Below are positions 4,233 to 13,407 of a DNA stretch of 33,070 nucleotides, in pieces. The translations under genes were made by a program, and so were the position numbers. The DNA is from a virus (taxonomy: Duplodnaviria > Heunggongvirae > Uroviricota > Caudoviricetes). The DNA lies in IMG/VR virus record IMGVR_UViG_2698536341_000022, positions 1-33,070 of that record; one strand, 5' to 3'. The notes under the pieces were generated by a model. That model had not been told where the DNA came from and did not search any database. It worked only from the letters and a program-made list of their open reading frames with translations. Each line of letters starts with the position of its first letter. Position 1 is the stretch's first letter.

Positions 4233-5086
4233 GCACCATCCTGAAATGGGCGGGAAATAAAACCGCCATTATGCCAGAACTGAAAAAATACCTTCCTGCT
4301 GGCCCGCGACTGGTTGAACCTTTCGCGGGTTCCTGTGCTGTGATGATGGAAACGGATTATCCCAGCTATCTGGTTGCGGATATTAATCCTGATTTAATCA
4401 ACCTCTATAAAAAGGTTTCCGCTGATTGTGAATCGTTTATATCTCGCGCCAGAGTTTTATTTGAGATCGCAAACAGGGAGGTGGCTTATTACAACATAAG
4501 GCAGGAGTTTAACTGCTCAACTGAAATTACTGATTTCATGAAAGCGGTATATTTCCTGTATCTTAATCGTCACGGTTACCGTGGTTTATGTCGCTATAAC
4601 AAGAGCGGGCATTTCAACATCCCCTACGGTAATTATAAAAATCCGTATTTCCCTGAAAAAGAACTTCGCACATTTGCAGAAAAAGCCCAGCGAGCAACGT
4701 TTATCTGCGCCAGCTTTGATGAAACGCTGGCGATGTTGAAGGCGGGAGATGTGGTGTATTGCGATCCGCCGTATGACGGTACGTTTTCCGGCTATCACAC
4801 TGATGGTTTCACTGAAGATGACCAGTATCACCTGGCATCCGTTCTTGAACATCGGTCATCAGAAGGACATCCAGTCATTGTTTCTAACAGTGACACATCC
4901 CTGATCCGTTCGCTGTATCGCAATTTTACTCACCACTATATCAAGGTAAAACGCAGCATCGGTGTGGCAGCTGGCGAGGGTAAATCAGCAACAGAAATCA
5001 TTGCTGTTTCCGGGCCGCGCTGCTGGATGGGATTTGATTATTCGCGTGGCGTGGATAGTTCTGCCGTGTACGGAGTACGTGCATGA
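4229..5086 (+). CDS. dam: DNA adenine methyltransferase, Dam-like (285 aa)
   Basis: ATG 4229 with GGAGG RBS; motifs LKWAGNK, EPFAGS and the catalytic DPPY tetrad are hallmarks of N6-adenine (GATC-type) methylases; ATGA overlaps with flanking genes. Confidence 0.85.
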
Positions 5087-7497
5087 GTCATGCCGATATG
5101 AACAACTGCTGCGGCTTTAACGAGGCTGCTGCAGCATTCTCATGGAACAGCCCGAAAAAGGCCATTAACCCTTATCTGGACCCGGCGGAAGTTGCGCCGG
5201 TTTCTACGCTTTCAAACCTGATCACTCTGTACGCTGCCGATAACGAGCAGGAACAGTTGCGCCGCGAGGCACTGAGTGATCAGGTCTGGGAGCGTTATTT
5301 CTTTAATGAATCACGTGATCCTGTCCAGCGCGAAATGGAGCAGGATAAGCTCATTAGCCGGGCAAAGCTGGCGCATGAGCAGCAGCGTTTTAATTCAGAC
5401 ATGGTCATTCTGGCGGACGTCAACGCCCAGCCTTCCCATATCAGCAAGCCGCTGATGCAACGTATTGAATACTTCAGCAGCCTGGGCAAGCCAAAGGCTT
5501 ATTCCCGCTATTTACGTGAGACGATTAAGCCATGTCTGGAACGACTGGAGCATGTACGCGACAGTCAGCTATCTGCATCTTTTCGCTTTATGGCAAGCCA
5601 TGAAGGGCTGGACGGCCTGCTGATCCTGCCTGAAATGAGTCAGGATCAGGTGAAACGCCTGTCCACCCTGGTAGCTGCGCATATGAGTATGTGCCTTGAT
5701 GCAGCTTGTGGTGATTTGTATGCCACCGATGACGTTAAGCCAGAAGAAATCCGCAAGACATGGGAAAAGGTGGCAGCGGAAACCCTGCGTCTGGATGTCA
5801 TCCCACCTGCGTTTGAGCAACTCCGTCGGAAAAGAAACCGCCGTAAACCCGTGCCCTATGAACTCATTCCGGGTTCGTTGGCGCGTATGTTGTGTGCCGA
5901 CTGGTGGTATCGGAAATTATGGAAGATGCGTTGTGAATGGCGGGAAGAGCAGTTGCGTGCTGTCTGCCTGGTCAGCAAAAAAGCATCCCCCTATGTCAGC
6001 TATGAAGCCGTGATGCATAAACGTGAGCAGCGCCGTAAGTCGCTGGAGTTTTTCCGTTCTCATGAACTGGTGAACGAAGACGGCGACACGCTGGATATGG
6101 AAGATGTGGTAAACGCCAGCAGCAGCAACCCGGCGCATCGCCGCAATGAGATGATGGCCTGTGTTAAAGGTCTGGAGCTTATCGCGGAAATGCGCAGTGA
6201 CTGCGCCGTTTTCTACACTATCACCTGTCCGTCGCGTTTCCATTCCACGCTCAATAACGGCAGACCCAACCCGACCTGGACAAACTCGACGGTAAGACAA
6301 AGCAGCGACTATCTGGTCGGCATGTTTGCTGCATTTCGTAAGGCGATGCACAAAGCCGGATTGCGCTGGTATGGCGTGCGGGTGGCTGAGCCGCATCATG
6401 ACGGTACAGTTCACTGGCACCTGTTGTGTTTTATGCGCAAAAAAGACCGCCGCGCCATCACTGCATTACTGCGTAAGTTTGCCATCCGTGAAGACCGCGA
6501 GGAGCTGGGCAATAACACTGGGCCGCGCTTTAAGTCTGAGTTGATTAACCCGCGCAAAGGAACGCCGACAAGCTACATCGCGAAATATATCAGTAAGAAC
6601 ATTGACGGGCGTGGTCTGGCTGGCGAGATCAGCAAGGAAACGGGTAAATCTCTGCGTGATAACGCTGAATACGTTAATGTCTGGGCGTCTCTGCATCGTG
6701 TTCAGCAATTCCGCTTCTTTGGCATTCCGGGGCGTCAGGCTTACCGTGAACTGCGATTGCTGGCTGGTCAGGCGGCAAGGCAACAGGGTGACAAAAAAGC
6801 AGGTGCTCCGGTACTGGATAACCCGCGCCTTGATGCCATTCTGGCTGCTGCTGATGCTGGCTGTTTTGCCACCTACATTATGAAGCAGGGCGGCGTGTTG
6901 GTTCCCCGCAAATATCACTTGATCAGAACCGCTTATGAAATCAACGAAGAGCCGACAGCCTATGGCGATCACGGCATTCGTATTTATGGCATCTGGTCAC
7001 CCATTGCAGAGGGCAAGATCTGCACTCATGCAGTGAAGTGGAAAATGGTTCGTAAGGCCGTTGACGTTCAGGAGGCGGCAGCCGACCAGGGCGCTTGCGC
7101 CCCTTGGACTCGTGGCAATAACTGTCCCCTTGCTGAAAATTTGTACCAACAAGGGAAAGACAAATCAGCTGATGGAGATACCAGAACTGATATCACCCGT
7201 ATGGATGACAAGGAGTTGCACGATTACCTGCACAGTATGAGCAAAAAAGAGCGCCGGGAACTGGCAGCAAGGTTACGCCTGGTGAAACCGAAACGGCGTA
7301 AAGACTACAAACAGCGAATTACAGATCATCAGCGACAGCAGCTCGTGTATGAACTGAAGTCCAGGGGATTTGATGGCAGCGAGAAAGAGGTCGATTTACT
7401 CCTTCGCGGCGGCAGTATTCCGTCAGGAGCAGGCCTGCGTATCTTCTATCGGAACCAGCGTTTGCAGGAAGATGATAAGTGGCGGAACCTGTATTAA
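5083..7497 (+). CDS. A: Replication initiation protein A (rolling-circle nicking endonuclease, P2 gpA / 186 RepA family, 804 aa)
   Basis: Size, position after the early operon and the HxH-containing segment (VHWHLLCF) fit P2 A-type replication proteins. Confidence 0.85.
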
Positions 7498-8226: not shown

Positions 8227-10086
8227 TTAGTGAGGGCTGGTTATTACGTAGTCGCTCTGGTCATCCTCTCCCAGCCTCTCAGGTATTAAATCGTTGAAGG
8301 AAATAGTATTACTCTTAGGTTTTTCTTCAATTGGAAGTTCAGCTACCCTTAATTTGAGCGGCATGGGGCAGACGATACCACTAAAAATACAGGTTCCTGT
8401 AGATAGCGTTGGAATCGACTCTTCAGTCAGTCGATCTATATATGATACTGATTTTTCAATTGCGTACAGATCATTCTGATTAATAAGGCGATGAATAAAA
8501 TAATTGTGTGCTTGGGATATGATTGTCGACGATATATCATTAGGGCGTTGACTGGAAATTGTGATAAAAACTCCAAATTTTCTCCCCTCCTTTATGATTT
8601 CCTCAAAAGTTTCCAGACGATAATCTCTCCAACTTTCCGTTTCCCGAAAAGAAGTATTAGACAAAATATTGTGGGCTTCATCTATAATGATGTGCAGTGT
8701 AGATTTCTCTGTAGACATTTTCTTCATATTGTAAGCCCACTTGGCTATCAAAAGAGGAAGCGTTTTTTTCATGGTTATATTAACCATATTTAGATTCACA
8801 ACCGTGAAATTATGTTCACCCCAAAAGTCAGACTGTCCGGAAGTATCAAATATTTTGGCTATATCTTTACGGTTAGCACTCATTCTATTTATAACTGGTG
8901 AAATATGTTCAGGGTTAGACTTGTTAGATAAATATTCCTGTATTAACTGTAAGTACATAAAGTCCAACAGTTCTTCAATCATATCAGTTTTAAATAAAAA
9001 ATTGCTTGCAAGACTGAATAGATAGGAGCGCTCAGTATCAGCTTCTGTATTGAAAATACTACCACCCCTCAATTTCCATTTATATGCAGTTGAATGATAC
9101 TCAAGATCAGATATAAGTTCTGGGTCATCTTTGAAAATTGGGCTAAGAAACTGATTTATAGTATCGCATTTGGGTTTGTCGCTACTAAAGAGATTTTGTC
9201 TGACTTTTTTCTTCAGGATATTGCGCATAAACTCAAGAGGATTATCAGCAGTCATCACTTTCTTGCGAAACTCAAGAACTCTCTTCAGGAAAGGTTTCTG
9301 TGTTTTGTCTGTTGCATCGGTTAGAACTGAGAGCATATCATGCTCAAGTAGAACCTCTCTGGGTAGAGGAAGTTTGTCACCATTTGCATGGTGCGTGTTG
9401 AGATTATAAACCGTCTTCTCGTCAGTAATACAGCGTGGGGCAGTATATTCTCCATTAAAGTCGAATAGAATAAATTTGCATCTTTCACTAAAGTGGTTGC
9501 CGAGAATATGTTTAACTTGGGCAATACCTGCTTTGTATAGCGCGGCTAGGGTATTTGACTTTCCGCTGCCTGTATTACCGAAAATGGCAATGTGGGAATT
9601 AATAAGACCATTGATTGGTAGTGCAATTTCAATATCTTCAAGATCTGTACGAGTAAACCTCATTACAGTTTCGTCTGCATTAGCTATCTGATGAACCGTT
9701 TGTATCATCTCTTCAGTTACCACGAAGACTTCATTGCCGATGAGAGGTAGTTCACGCGAACCACCAATGAAGCAACCAGTACGATCAATGTAACCCGTAA
9801 GAGTAGAGGTCAGGTATCGCCGATATCGCCAGGCATCACTGCCGCTCCCAGCGAGATGTTTTTCCTCAATGATTCGTTCCGCTTCAACCTTGCCGATCAG
9901 GCTCATGAAACCTTTTTTGATCTCAATGAAGCTACCCACTGATACATTTCTTAGAACTTTTCCCTGATAAAACAAGTCACTGAGATTTTTGTTTTTATCG
10001 ACCAAAATTGTCACAGCGCGTCCAGAAACCTCACAGACTTCGCCTATACGGAGCACCGCTTCCTCTTCAGTAAAATGCCTGCTCAT
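8227..10086 (-). CDS. herA: HerA-like P-loop ATPase/helicase of the SIR2-HerA anti-phage system (619 aa)
   Basis: Walker A GNTGSGKSN and Walker B IIIDEAHN in a DUF87/HerA-FtsK-like arrangement; ATG 10086 overlaps the SIR2 stop (ATGA) with a GGGAGG RBS. The track ORF extends to GTG 10107. Confidence 0.85.
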   Translation of the reverse strand: MSRHFTEEEAVLRIGEVCEVSGRAVTILVDKNKNLSDLFYQGKVLRNVSVGSFIEIKKGFMSLIGKVEAERIIEEKHLAGSGSDAWRYRRYLTSTLTGYIDRTGCFIGGSRELPLIGNEVFVVTEEMIQTVHQIANADETVMRFTRTDLEDIEIALPINGLINSHIAIFGNTGSGKSNTLAALYKAGIAQVKHILGNHFSERCKFILFDFNGEYTAPRCITDEKTVYNLNTHHANGDKLPLPREVLLEHDMLSVLTDATDKTQKPFLKRVLEFRKKVMTADNPLEFMRNILKKKVRQNLFSSDKPKCDTINQFLSPIFKDDPELISDLEYHSTAYKWKLRGGSIFNTEADTERSYLFSLASNFLFKTDMIEELLDFMYLQLIQEYLSNKSNPEHISPVINRMSANRKDIAKIFDTSGQSDFWGEHNFTVVNLNMVNITMKKTLPLLIAKWAYNMKKMSTEKSTLHIIIDEAHNILSNTSFRETESWRDYRLETFEEIIKEGRKFGVFITISSQRPNDISSTIISQAHNYFIHRLINQNDLYAIEKSVSYIDRLTEESIPTLSTGTCIFSGIVCPMPLKLRVAELPIEEKPKSNTISFNDLIPERLGEDDQSDYVITSPH

Positions 10087-11126
10087 CTCGAGCCTCCCAG
10101 ATAGCACGTGATAATGTTATTCATTACCGGAAAATCAACATTTCTTCCCGGCCGATAAATAATCTCTACGTTTGAGTAATCCCGAAATTTCTCCATAAAG
10201 CCGTTAACACTGGCCTCATCGAAAGCAAAGATCAGTAGCTTCAGGGTGGCGTTGCGCAGGGCTTTTTTAGTTATCGTTTCAATGTGCTCATCAGCAAACG
10301 AGAACCCAAAGACAATTAGTAAAGTTGCTTCTTTATCAAGCTCGTTGGAATAGGTTCTCAGTAAATCATAATAAACGTTCTGTAGTAGAGTCTCTTTAAA
10401 CTTCTCCTTACGTGGAAGAATAAGTGCATGAGCAAGTACCCATCCTTTCATTTCGGCTAGGGTGGGAAAGTCAAGCGGCTTAATATCTGCAATACGATAA
10501 ATGATTTTCCCTTTAGAATGCTGCCAAGAGAGCGAACCATGAAGTTTTATAAGGTTAACAGTAGGAAGCTCAACTTTATAATTATACAGATTTCCGGTTG
10601 CACTTACAGAATGATTAAAGCTACCCGCATCAAATTCCGCATCTCCCAAAATACTTGCTCTTCTATTGAATCCATCATTAAAAAGAATATTGTTATTACG
10701 TGTGGCAGCTTCTTCGATGAATAAATCATAATTAGTTGTAAAAACGTTAATACGCCTCGGAAGTAGGCCAGTTCGGCGGCGGGTCAGTATCTTTTCCAGT
10801 GAAGACATAAATGCATCATAATTTGCACGGGTACATTCCAAATCGGTGATCACCTGAGGTGCGAAGGGGGTGCCGTAGCCGCGCTTCAACATGCATTCAT
10901 GAGGTAGCCAAACATCTGACAAAAAGTCAGCTGCCATCCTTAAGTATTCATCTTCCTGTTCATCATTAATAAGCTGCTGAAGATCCGTTTCGATTGTCCC
11001 CAGTACTTTAATCGCTGGGAGGGATGCACCTGATCCGATGAGAAAGTTAATGTTAGCTGACTGAAATATCCGCTCTAAGTAGTCTCGGTCACTATCGTTA
11101 CCGTAGTATGCGCGCTTGACTGCCAT
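10083..11126 (-). CDS. SIR2-like NAD-consuming domain protein of the SIR2-HerA anti-phage system (347 aa)
   Basis: Motifs FLIGSGAS, TTNYD and KLHGS are hallmarks of defence-type SIR2 domains; ATG 11126 with AAGGA RBS (track ORF starts at TTG 11141); directly upstream of and overlapping herA. Confidence 0.85.
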   Translation of the reverse strand: MAVKRAYYGNDSDRDYLERIFQSANINFLIGSGASLPAIKVLGTIETDLQQLINDEQEDEYLRMAADFLSDVWLPHECMLKRGYGTPFAPQVITDLECTRANYDAFMSSLEKILTRRRTGLLPRRINVFTTNYDLFIEEAATRNNNILFNDGFNRRASILGDAEFDAGSFNHSVSATGNLYNYKVELPTVNLIKLHGSLSWQHSKGKIIYRIADIKPLDFPTLAEMKGWVLAHALILPRKEKFKETLLQNVYYDLLRTYSNELDKEATLLIVFGFSFADEHIETITKKALRNATLKLLIFAFDEASVNGFMEKFRDYSNVEIIYRPGRNVDFPVMNNIITCYLGGSR

Positions 11127-11550
11127 CTTATCCTTCCACAAAACATTGGATTAGTCTGTAATTTATTTAATCTTAACGCCGAGCTCAATACTTTAACATC
11201 ACTTCTTCTGGCGATTGCTATGAGCCCTTCTTGATAAAAAGTTCGATCGGGAAACTGATCCTTTATGCCACAAGTTTTCTAGCTATCCTCAAAAAATTGG
11301 TGTTAAAACTGTGCCAACAAAGTTGCAAGGTTCGCTTCTCGCTCACAGCGAACTTTCATCTTTGTAAACCCGTATGATTCGCTTTTCAGCAGTCATTCAG
11401 ATACGGATTTACGCTTCCCTTGGCAGCGCATGACTATGACGCATGAGATCGCATGATCGTTTGAGGATCGTTTTTGCTGAAGTCAGCCAGAACTGGCGTG
11501 CTTTTGCTTATGTCATGCAGGTGCATGAAAACCACTACATAAAGCGGGCA

Positions 11551-11569
11551 GGCGTGGCGGGGATACGAG
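11551..11569. other. Candidate cos (cohesive end) site, 186/P2-like
   Basis: GGCGTGGCGGGGA matches the first 13 nt of the 19-nt cohesive end as I recall it for 186 (GGCGTGGCGGGGAAAGCAT); the last 6 nt diverge. It lies in a 580-bp non-coding stretch. Recalled from memory, not searched. Confidence 0.35.
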
Positions 11570-11721
11570 CGCGCGCTAAGTCATATAAGAGTTATATATT
11601 GATTTGATTGCTGGACATGCATACAGTATCGCTCTATCATCTAATAAATCTTAGAGTATTTGACAATGTTTGGATAAAATGGAACCTAACTTATTCATAA
11701 TCCGCTAAACAGGGATGTCAG

Positions 11722-12636
11722 ATGCCATACCAATTGGTAGAGCTTAGCCCCGTAGCTAACGATCTTGAACAGTTAGGAACCAAAGAGAAGTTTTGGTTCT
11801 ATTTCTCCGATGACACTGTAAATTTGCAGTTGTTTAAGTACTCTAGGCCAGGTACTGGCGAGCATTGGTCTGAAAAGTGTGCTGCTGAGTTATGTCATTT
11901 GCTTAACATTCCACATGCTAGCTATGATTTGGCGCGATACAATGGTCGATTCGGTGTGGTGACTCAGAATATCATTCCATCTGGTTTCCGGATGGTAATG
12001 GGAAATGAAGTGCTTCACAGTTCGACATTCGATTATCCTGGGTCTTTACAAGCCGGGGAAAAGCCGGTAAGGGTCAGAGAACACACTGTCACAAGGGTAT
12101 TGGGTTGTTTAGATAGGGAATCTATCAAGCCTCCTCCGAGTGTATATGATCTAACCGGGCTAAATGCAGCAGATGTATTTTGTGGATATTTGATGCTCGA
12201 TGCACTTGTGAGTAATCAAGATCGCCATCATGAAAATTGGGCGATCATGCTTAACAATGAAACTGGTGAGCAGTTTTTGTGTCCAACATACGATCATGCC
12301 GCTAGTTTAGGAAGGGAGATGTTAGATGATGAGCGTAACGAACGGCTTAATACTAAAGATAAAAATCGACAAATCCCATGTTTTGTAAGAAAAGCTCGCT
12401 CTGAGCTATTCAAAGCAAAAACTGATAAAAAGCCCTTGCTGACCGTTGAAGCATTTCAACATGCAGTTGAAGGGAGAGTTGCCGCTCGCGACCATTGGTT
12501 AGGTAAGTTGAGCGTTTTAACAGAAGATTCCATTACAGATGTGTTTAACCAAGTGCCTTCATCGTGTATATCCGACAGTGCACGTAGATTTGCAACGTTA
12601 ATGGTAATGGAAAATCGCAGAAGGTTACTAGAATGA
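11722..12636 (+). CDS. HipA/HipT-like Ser/Thr kinase-fold protein (304 aa); first gene of a candidate two-gene defence/toxin module
   Basis: P-loop-like LGTKEKFWF near the N-terminus, catalytic-loop-like SNQDRHHENW and a downstream PTYDH motif, in the order seen in HipA_C kinases; lacks the long HipA N-domain (HipT-like length). Stop overlaps the next start (ATGA). Confidence 0.6.
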   Translation: MPYQLVELSPVANDLEQLGTKEKFWFYFSDDTVNLQLFKYSRPGTGEHWSEKCAAELCHLLNIPHASYDLARYNGRFGVVTQNIIPSGFRMVMGNEVLHSSTFDYPGSLQAGEKPVRVREHTVTRVLGCLDRESIKPPPSVYDLTGLNAADVFCGYLMLDALVSNQDRHHENWAIMLNNETGEQFLCPTYDHAASLGREMLDDERNERLNTKDKNRQIPCFVRKARSELFKAKTDKKPLLTVEAFQHAVEGRVAARDHWLGKLSVLTEDSITDVFNQVPSSCISDSARRFATLMVMENRRRLLE

Positions 12637-13373
12637 CTAATACAAACTCCGTTTACGTCGCATGGCAGGCACCAGATACCAGAGACTGGCATGTTGTTGG
12701 TAACTTGCAAGAGCGCAAATCGGGGTATGTTTTCAGGTATACCAAAGGTGCTCTCAAATCTACTAAATTTACAAAGTTTAGCGGCATGAGTGATGTTCGT
12801 GAAACTTATGTTTCGGAAGAATTGTTTCCTCTTTTTAAAAATCGCCTTTTATCACCGAGACGTCCAGAGTATCCGAGTTTCATTAAATGGCTTGGATTTG
12901 AAGAAGATAAGGTAAATCCTATCGATATTCTTGCTCGCTCGGGAGGCTTACGAAGCACTGATCAGCTGCAGATTTTCAAAAAAATTGATGTTGATTCTGA
13001 TGGTAACTTTGAGCATTTTTTCTTCTTACATGGACTTGGTTACTTAAATAGCTTAGCTAATGCTCGTGTATCTGAATTGAAACCGGGGCAAATTTTGCGT
13101 CTTTGCTTGGATCTTCAAAATGAATACGATGGGGATGCTGTTGTCGTTCGTGCAGATAAACCAGCTGAAATCGTTGGTTACTGCCCTAGGTATTTAAGTA
13201 ATGATATCAAGAAGATGTTATTGGATGATCCAAAATCAATCACTTTAACGGTCGAAAAGATTAGCGATGATGCTCCTCATAACTATCGGTTATTATGTAA
13301 ATTATCAGGAGTACTAAGCCAAGCCTGTCAATCGACGCTGATTCCTCAGGATGAGTTTGAACCTATTGAGTAA
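12633..13373 (+). CDS. Protein with HipA-N/HipS-like N-terminal domain and C-terminal HIRAN-like domain (246 aa)
   Basis: N-terminal LFPLFKNRLLSPRRPEY resembles the HipA N-domain motif (F-x-N-L-L-P-E-G-x-x-R); C-terminal LKPGQILRLCLDLQNEYDGDAVVVRADKPAEIVGYCPRYLSNDIKKML matches the HIRAN signature (NPYD-x-NAI-x-V ... G-Y-x-P). Translationally coupled to the kinase gene. Confidence 0.55.
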   Translation: MTNTNSVYVAWQAPDTRDWHVVGNLQERKSGYVFRYTKGALKSTKFTKFSGMSDVRETYVSEELFPLFKNRLLSPRRPEYPSFIKWLGFEEDKVNPIDILARSGGLRSTDQLQIFKKIDVDSDGNFEHFFFLHGLGYLNSLANARVSELKPGQILRLCLDLQNEYDGDAVVVRADKPAEIVGYCPRYLSNDIKKMLLDDPKSITLTVEKISDDAPHNYRLLCKLSGVLSQACQSTLIPQDEFEPIE

Positions 13374-13379
13374 ATGAAG

Positions 13380-13403
13380 AAAAGCCACCAAACGGTGGCT
13401 TTT
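13380..13403. terminator. Bidirectional rho-independent terminator between the kinase-HIRAN operon and portal gene Q
   Basis: Inverted repeat AAAAGCCACC / GGTGGCTTTT with a short loop, flanked by T-runs on both strands, in the 34-bp gap between convergent stops. Confidence 0.7.
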
Positions 13404-13407
13404 CTTA

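Follow-up and report, generated by a model that had tools for sequence, protein, structure and literature searches.

A short kinase of the HipA family, HipI, encoded directly ahead of a partner protein, HipN, that combines a HipS-like with a HIRAN domain, was named hipIN by Gerdes, Baerentsen and Brodersen in 2021 (mBio, PMC8262856). These authors suggest that neutralisation of the kinase is due to the HipS-like domain, as in hipBST, and they propose that HIRAN recognises the DNA ends of an invading phage and activates the kinase, leading to abortive infection. The paper counts only 14 hipIN modules, with one of four HipI subclades taking in Proteobacteria, and it describes short kinase families that span 279–321 amino acids (aa) and are without N-subdomain-1. 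In PADLOC-DB, the combination of HipA and HIRAN is found as PDC-M03, a computational defence candidate without stated mechanism or validation, and Rousset et al. (2022, PMC9122126) have defined a defence hotspot of P2-like phages in the gpA–gpQ region. Here we consider positions 11,722 to 13,373 of a stretch of 33,070 nucleotides (nt) from a virus of the Caudoviricetes (IMG/VR record IMGVR_UViG_2698536341_000022, positions 1 to 33,070; the whole stretch is called the window), where a first-pass annotation had proposed an undescribed two-gene module consisting of a split HipA-like kinase and a HipS-like/HIRAN fusion. The comparison leaves very little doubt that this pair is hipIN/PDC-M03. It is thus a known, already catalogued module and not a new one, and as a discovery it is ordinary.

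The two PADLOC models cover almost the full lengths of the proteins: PDC-M03A matches residues 2–304 of the 304 in HipI (E 2e-122) and PDC-M03B residues 1–244 of the 246 in HipN (E 3.4e-93). PDC-M03 requires adjacent A and B matches; in the window these overlap by 4 nt, and no difference from the model system was found. No architectural difference from hipIN (PMC8262856) was found either. The gene order is the same, with the kinase first and the partner downstream, the kinase length of 304 aa lies inside the 279–321 aa range, the Gly-rich loop (residues 19–23) is near the N-terminus and contains a Thr, and the partner is composed of HipS-like and HIRAN parts. Three core Hip kinase motifs (Gly-rich, catalytic loop and Mg-binding Asp) could be mapped in HipI, while the paper counts four. 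The window copy is borne by a P2 prophage, a setting that does not appear in the passages of the paper that were considered.

The pair is also present in Table S5A of Rousset et al. (PMC9122126), where WP_001146828 or WP_023568565 ('hypothetical') is given for P2 hotspots together with WP_000185757 or WP_000185756 (HIRAN). These accessions are those annotated in near-identical E. coli hipIN loci; in one that is 99.9% identical, the two proteins are annotated as RefSeq WP_001146828 and WP_000185757. Since hipIN, PDC-M03 and the P2-hotspot table already hold the pair, it cannot be called undescribed, and the match to a named system that the first-pass annotation had itself set down as counting against its claim was found three times.

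With regard to gene 1, sequence motifs and predicted fold point to a short HipA-family Ser/Thr kinase that is apparently catalytically competent. In Foldseek searches, its AlphaFold2 model (predicted local distance difference test, pLDDT, 83.4; predicted template modelling score, pTM, 0.85) matches H. pylori CtkA with E 8e-10 (template modelling, TM, scores 0.68/0.74), E. coli HipA with ca 1e-6 and HipT of the Legionella HipBST system with ca 1e-4. By sequence, CtkA is reached among the PDB chains with E 0.43 when the single sequence is used and 0.0018 with a profile, the latter being the only PDB sequence match of HipI below E 0.01. Apart from CtkA, the PDB-chain searches with both proteins gave nothing useful, and a search of NCBIfam returned no significant family. 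CtkA (PDB 3akj), the best structural match, has the catalytic loop in common with HipI, whose loop aligns with NFDRHNGNW of CtkA. It differs in being a stand-alone kinase, 'proinflammatory' according to its PDB entry and with no HipS/HIRAN partner there, and the sequence identity is 13–15%.

The motifs on which the first-pass annotation was based, namely GTKEKF (residues 19–24), NQDRHHEN (165–172) and PTYDH (188–192) of gene 1 and LFPLFKNRLLSPRRPEY (64–80) of gene 2, were all found in the translations. They are invariant or almost so in 24 homologues, which are 54–93% identical to the window proteins. Among 51 paired kinases from other phyla, G[TS][KR]xK is present in 43, the catalytic loop of the NQDRHHEN type in 49 and [FY]D[HNQ][AGS] in 50. 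HipI begins essentially at the Gly-rich loop and is therefore without the N-subdomain-1 of HipA. The suggestion of a HipA_C-type kinase that lacks the N-domain is thus borne out by the motifs together with the fold matches to CtkA, HipA and HipT.

The missing HipS/HipA-N-like domain is, according to the predicted structure, supplied by HipN (AlphaFold2 model, pLDDT 88.2), where it is fused to HIRAN. The latter is recognised by Pfam above threshold, with 51.3 bits compared to a cut-off of 24.7 (E 1.1e-13), so that the proposed fusion also holds, with its HipS-like part taken from the model. In the HIRAN domain, N163-x-Y-D166-x-x-A169 aligns with what we take to be the NNPYDKNAI sequence of HLTF, a segment that contributes to the 3'-end-binding pocket of that protein. 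The coordinates of these and other features are collected in Table 1. Both open reading frames (ORFs), taken from the ORF list, and their stop/start overlap, read directly from the sequence, are where the first-pass annotation had put them.

Table 1. Features of the hipIN locus, in coordinates of the window.
Feature	Position	Strand	Evidence
hipI, HipA-family Ser/Thr kinase core without HipA N-subdomain-1 (PADLOC PDC-M03A); 304 aa, ATG start	11722..12636	+	ORF; PDC-M03A E 2e-122
Gly-rich (P-loop-like) motif G19-T-K-E-K23, near the N-terminus of HipI	11776..11790	+	invariant in 24 homologues
Catalytic loop N165-Q-D167-R-H-H-E-N172 of HipI	12214..12237	+	invariant in 24 homologues
Y190-D191-H192 of HipI, predicted Mg-binding Asp motif	12289..12297	+	invariant in 24 homologues
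ATGA overlap of hipI and hipN, translational coupling	12633..12636	+	sequence; exact 4-nt overlap in 23/53 paired loci
hipN, HipS-like + HIRAN protein (PADLOC PDC-M03B), putative antitoxin/sensor; 246 aa, ATG start	12633..13373	+	ORF; PDC-M03B E 3.4e-93
Predicted HipS-like N-terminal domain, about residues 1-105 of HipN	12633..12947	+	
HIRAN domain, residues 127-228 of HipN, with N163-x-Y-D166-x-x-A169 and G182-Y motifs	13011..13316	+	
Promoter-like site, TGGACA, 17 nt, TATCAT; ca 80 nt upstream of hipI	11612..11640	+	consensus scan, 10/12 matches
Perfect 13-bp GC-rich hairpin between convergent hipN and portal Q	13377..13406	.	RNA fold

The pair is conserved as a tightly coupled unit across many phyla, and its distribution is of a mobile, hotspot type. 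When 185,579 species genomes were scanned with a pattern derived from the HipN alignment, 63 loci were obtained, from Gamma- and Zetaproteobacteria, Cyanobacteria, Planctomycetota, Acidobacteriota, Bacteroidota, Actinomycetota, Chloroflexota and others. A kinase homologue is located directly upstream and on the same strand in 53 of them, and most of the pairs that do not show the exact overlap are within ca 20 nt. The exceptions include a locus in which the pair is split (L046), two in which the kinase is frameshifted (L034 and L039) and two that lie too near a contig end for a kinase to be scored (L036 and L037). An exhaustive profile search gave 305 clusters (50% identity) at E ≤ 1e-30, and the proteins of the best 150 of these are mostly ca 240–270 aa long. 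In E. coli, hipIN is present at ≥98% identity in 21 of 5,426 complete genomes. In two of the distant loci (L002 and L003), hipIN is flanked by gpA and portal genes, and DUF1156 methylase/PLD-helicase defence genes adjoin it in three or four loci.

A number of side observations were made on the irregular loci. In the split one, which is from a metagenome-assembled genome of the Pirellulales, kinase and HipN are separated by ca 1.06 kb with an opposite-strand ORF of 313 aa (4933–5874), which is taken to be an insertion sequence transposase. HipN copies without a kinase lie at ca 6001 in L015, 5824 in L026, 1516 in L040 and 6001 in L055. The 303-aa ORF upstream of that in L026 (4872–5783) is not a Hip kinase and has a 'VVDTNVV' stretch that was read as PIN-like, and a large gene lies after HipN in L040 as well as in L037, where its start is helicase/PLD-like in appearance. 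Effectors other than the kinase may be partners of HipN.

There may also be a variant of the system with three genes. A DEDD-type exonuclease (diDNase) has been reported beside HipA and HIRAN in Gram-positive bacteria (PMC11706625), and 'DUF5051 + HipA_C + HIRAN' is given for some E. coli P2 hotspots in Table S5A of Rousset et al. (PMC9122126). A DEDD exonuclease/diDNase gene was found neither beside the window copy nor among the commonest neighbours of the 63 loci, and the families that most often neighbour hipIN in 48 loci include neither it nor any other constant third gene.

The other Hip systems can be told apart from the window pair by their architecture. HipBST, as found in E. coli O127 and Legionella, is tricistronic and includes a gene for HipB, a helix-turn-helix (HTH) protein, whereas the window pair has no third gene. 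The HipS of HipBST is a stand-alone protein of ca 100 aa encoded upstream of the kinase, while the HipS-like domain of the window is encoded downstream and fused to HIRAN, and HipT ranks behind both CtkA and HipA as a structural match to the window kinase. In HipBA, the kinase has ca 440 aa, including N-subdomain-1, and is preceded by HipB, compared to 304 aa and no HTH neighbour here. Closer in domain composition are HipL and the pFR108 system of Rousset et al. ('Exonuclease + HipA'), in both of which kinase core, HipS-like and HIRAN domains follow in the same order as in the window pair. HipL, however, is monocistronic and a single polypeptide, while in the window a stop codon separates two ORFs, a split that is conserved in 53 loci. 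pFR108 shares the origin from a P2 hotspot, but its protein 2 is fused, there is an additional gene for a DEDD-type exonuclease, and its kinase shares 37% identity with gene 1 along 51 residues in the region of the catalytic loop (E 9e-9). As a fused and only distantly related version, pFR108 was rejected as a direct test of hipIN. The 'HIRAN-kinase' of Vibrio (Table S6 of Rousset et al. 2022) is a two-gene combination of HipA_C with Couple_hipA/HIRAN in a prophage hotspot, and the kinase shares 34% identity with gene 1 from end to end (E 4e-58). Its slot is a different one, between cI and the integrase of a K139-like phage, and it is tabulated but not reported as tested.

In the window, hipIN is swappable cargo of a P2-like E. 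coli prophage, placed in its variable gpA–gpQ region. The genes for SIR2 (10083..11141, − strand) and HerA (8227..10107, − strand) are on one flank, and portal and terminase genes on the other. Upstream of hipI, an intergenic stretch of 580 nt is followed by the divergent SIR2 gene, and downstream of hipN the portal gene is convergent. The GC content is 0.39–0.43 over hipIN and SIR2-HerA, as compared to 0.52–0.59 in the flanking phage structural genes. Gene calls and composition thus confirm what had been said of the neighbourhood, that is, AT-rich cargo next to a SIR2-HerA system and on the side of portal gene Q. The E. coli locus with 99.9% identity has a P2-like prophage setting, with the order integrase, CI, ..., replication endonuclease (gpA), a hypothetical gene, DinI, HerA-type ATPase and SIR2, followed by a 'HipA domain-containing protein', a 'HIRAN domain-containing protein', and portal, terminase and capsid genes.

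The promoter-like site in Table 1 is a candidate for the operon promoter. It is the sole match in the region, where the matches are fewer than expected by chance, which makes it weak evidence. The hairpin that follows hipN is likely to be a bidirectional terminator; it has a folding energy of −21 kcal/mol (z −6.8), and none of 200 shuffled sequences was equally stable. The consensus terminator scan did not pick it up.

A segment of 150–160 nt at ca 11425–11584, which includes GGCGTGGCGGGGA, is conserved with 80–93% identity in 85 records of P2-like phages of Klebsiella, Yersinia, Salmonella and Escherichia. The first-pass annotation had spoken of a cos-like site next to the pair. The conserved P2-like segment is indeed there and may correspond to cos, but the 19-mer of P2 cos was not found in the window even when 3 mismatches were allowed. 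An ORF of 54 aa on the + strand (11443–11607) overlaps this conserved non-coding segment and is unlikely to be a gene. The segment of phage 500465-1 comes after DinI and before a cargo gene with a TIR domain and the portal gene. Since this phage has its TIR cargo between segment and portal, cargo in this group of P2-like phages seems to be housed in two slots that flank the segment, with hipIN in the Q-proximal and SIR2-HerA in the A-proximal one.

SIR2-HerA (8227–11141, − strand) is a complete pair with overlapping genes (PADLOC E 6.3e-211 for SIR2 and 6.7e-267 for HerA). It is the known SIR2-HerA defence system, a separate cargo across the conserved segment. We also considered SIR2-HerA and hipIN as a single system. 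This was rejected, as near-identical hipIN copies occur without SIR2-HerA and as gpA and portal genes are the nearest called neighbours of hipIN in L002 and L003. The SIR2-HerA flank is common only to the top few E. coli matches, while the others have the order DinI-hipIN-Q or DinI-hypothetical-hipIN-Q, and hipIN is found beside DarT/Macro or Mrr_cat cargo in the table of Rousset et al. (PMC9122126). Because hipIN occurs with other cargo or with none, the two are independent.

As to what the pair does, the explanation that we favour as a whole, with modest confidence and largely by analogy, is that it is hipIN/PDC-M03 cargo with an abortive-infection kinase released through HIRAN. By analogy with HipBST, and as suggested by Gerdes et al., HipN's HipS-like domain would keep HipI inactive. 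HIRAN would bind free DNA 3' ends that arise from phage injection or from the replication of linear DNA, and this binding would lift the inhibition. The freed HipI could then phosphorylate an essential host factor, for which the family precedent is an aminoacyl-tRNA synthetase or another translation component, and the growth arrest would abort the infection and protect the lysogen population and hence the prophage. This is in essence what the first-pass annotation had put forward, with HIRAN sensing phage DNA ends and freeing the kinase; the idea is reasonable, but Gerdes et al. had already published it (PMC8262856). The context is of the defence type, as the pair lies in the P2 gpA–gpQ hotspot beside SIR2-HerA, and in other P2-like prophages it is accompanied by DarT/Macro, by Mrr_cat or by no other cargo. 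Taken separately, the chances that hipIN is an anti-phage system appear evenly balanced, and the binding of DNA ends by HIRAN as the trigger is a tentative proposal.

Several points weigh against this explanation. While HIRAN passes its Pfam threshold, the other two Pfam families that were expected do not: gene 1 matches HipA_C with E 3.6e-4 and 20.7 bits, the cut-off being 30.5, and gene 2 matches Couple_hipA with E 0.018. The HipS-like assignment comes from the predicted structure, and its sequence support is weak. Furthermore, in five loci (L015, L026, L040, L047 and L055) HipN has no kinase in the flank, the copy in L047 being truncated N-terminally, and given these copies a separate role for HipN is conceivable. 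A literature search found no toxicity, neutralisation or phage-defence experiment for any hipIN module, and Gerdes et al. enter 'None' as the analysed modules of clade XI (PMC8262856). Rousset et al. did clone pFR108, and it was not among the three further P2-hotspot systems that they described as protective against eight phages (PMC9122126). This is a weak negative, because the kinase of pFR108 is only distantly related to gene 1.

Other explanations have to be considered. The pair could serve to stabilise the prophage or its cargo by addiction (post-segregational killing) and not to defend against phages, with HipN as a labile antitoxin and with HIRAN replacing the HTH of HipB in autoregulation. 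HIRAN is in fact the sole predicted DNA-binding domain in hipIN, which has no HTH partner; hipI is preceded by intergenic DNA and by SIR2 in divergent orientation; the two genes move together as a self-contained unit; and maintenance functions, partitioning systems among them, are found in about a quarter of the P2 hotspots (Rousset et al., PMC9122126). However, a search for operator-like and inverted repeats upstream of hipI gave nothing convincing, and an integrated prophage gains little by addiction of the plasmid style. Characterised HIRAN domains, moreover, bind DNA 3' ends and not specific duplex operators, and we consider this option rather unlikely. Another option is that HipN does not inhibit the kinase and is instead required as its activating or targeting subunit. 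HipI and the HipS-like domain would then rebuild a HipA-like enzyme, which HIRAN would recruit to 3' ends, where it would phosphorylate DNA-bound replication, recombination or packaging proteins of phage or host, with a direct and non-abortive effect. The fused HipL and pFR108 show that both parts can work in one polypeptide. Nevertheless, HipS is an antitoxin in HipBST, the only studied case, and the targets identified for known Hip kinases are aminoacyl-tRNA synthetases (PMC8262856, including its Table 1), and an activating role of HipN is thus improbable.

The 3' ends might also come from the host cell itself. In this case, HIRAN would detect those that appear at replication forks or in the SOS response, independently of superinfecting phages, and the kinase would tune host physiology, in the form of persistence-like dormancy, or the lysogeny of P2. 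Eukaryotic HIRAN domains do act at stalled forks and HipA-family kinases have been linked to persistence (both from PMC8262856), and hipIN lies close to dinI-like genes in these prophages. DinI, however, is constant in the phage group and occurs with other cargo too, so that it is not a partner of hipIN, and it is not among the common neighbour families of hipIN loci outside the P2-like phages. The placement in a defence hotspot and the patchy, mobile distribution fit conflict systems better, and a sensor of DNA damage or prophage induction is very unlikely. We consider it a similarly long shot that HipN reads 3'-recessed cohesive ends, either those of a competitor or the phage's own at entry or packaging, with the kinase acting on phage proteins bound to the DNA end and not on an aminoacyl-tRNA synthetase. 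This idea stems from the position of the slot between the cos-proximal segment and portal Q, which would place hipIN at one physical end of the packaged genome. If true, hipIN would be a DNA-end-targeted protein kinase for phage–phage competition and not an abortive toxin.

Finally, since the architecture, the name, the listing as a defence candidate and the proposed sensing of DNA ends have all been published (PMC8262856 among the sources), the present locus adds little as a discovery. Returning to the favoured explanation of a kinase released through HIRAN, the window copy takes up no more than 1.65 kb plus promoter, its catalytic residues and those of the HIRAN pocket are clear, and it is carried by a P2-like prophage of E. 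coli. Because it is E. coli-borne and compact, and because these residues can be mutated, it would be a convenient model for HIRAN as a bacterial sensor of foreign DNA ends that is coupled to a Hip kinase.

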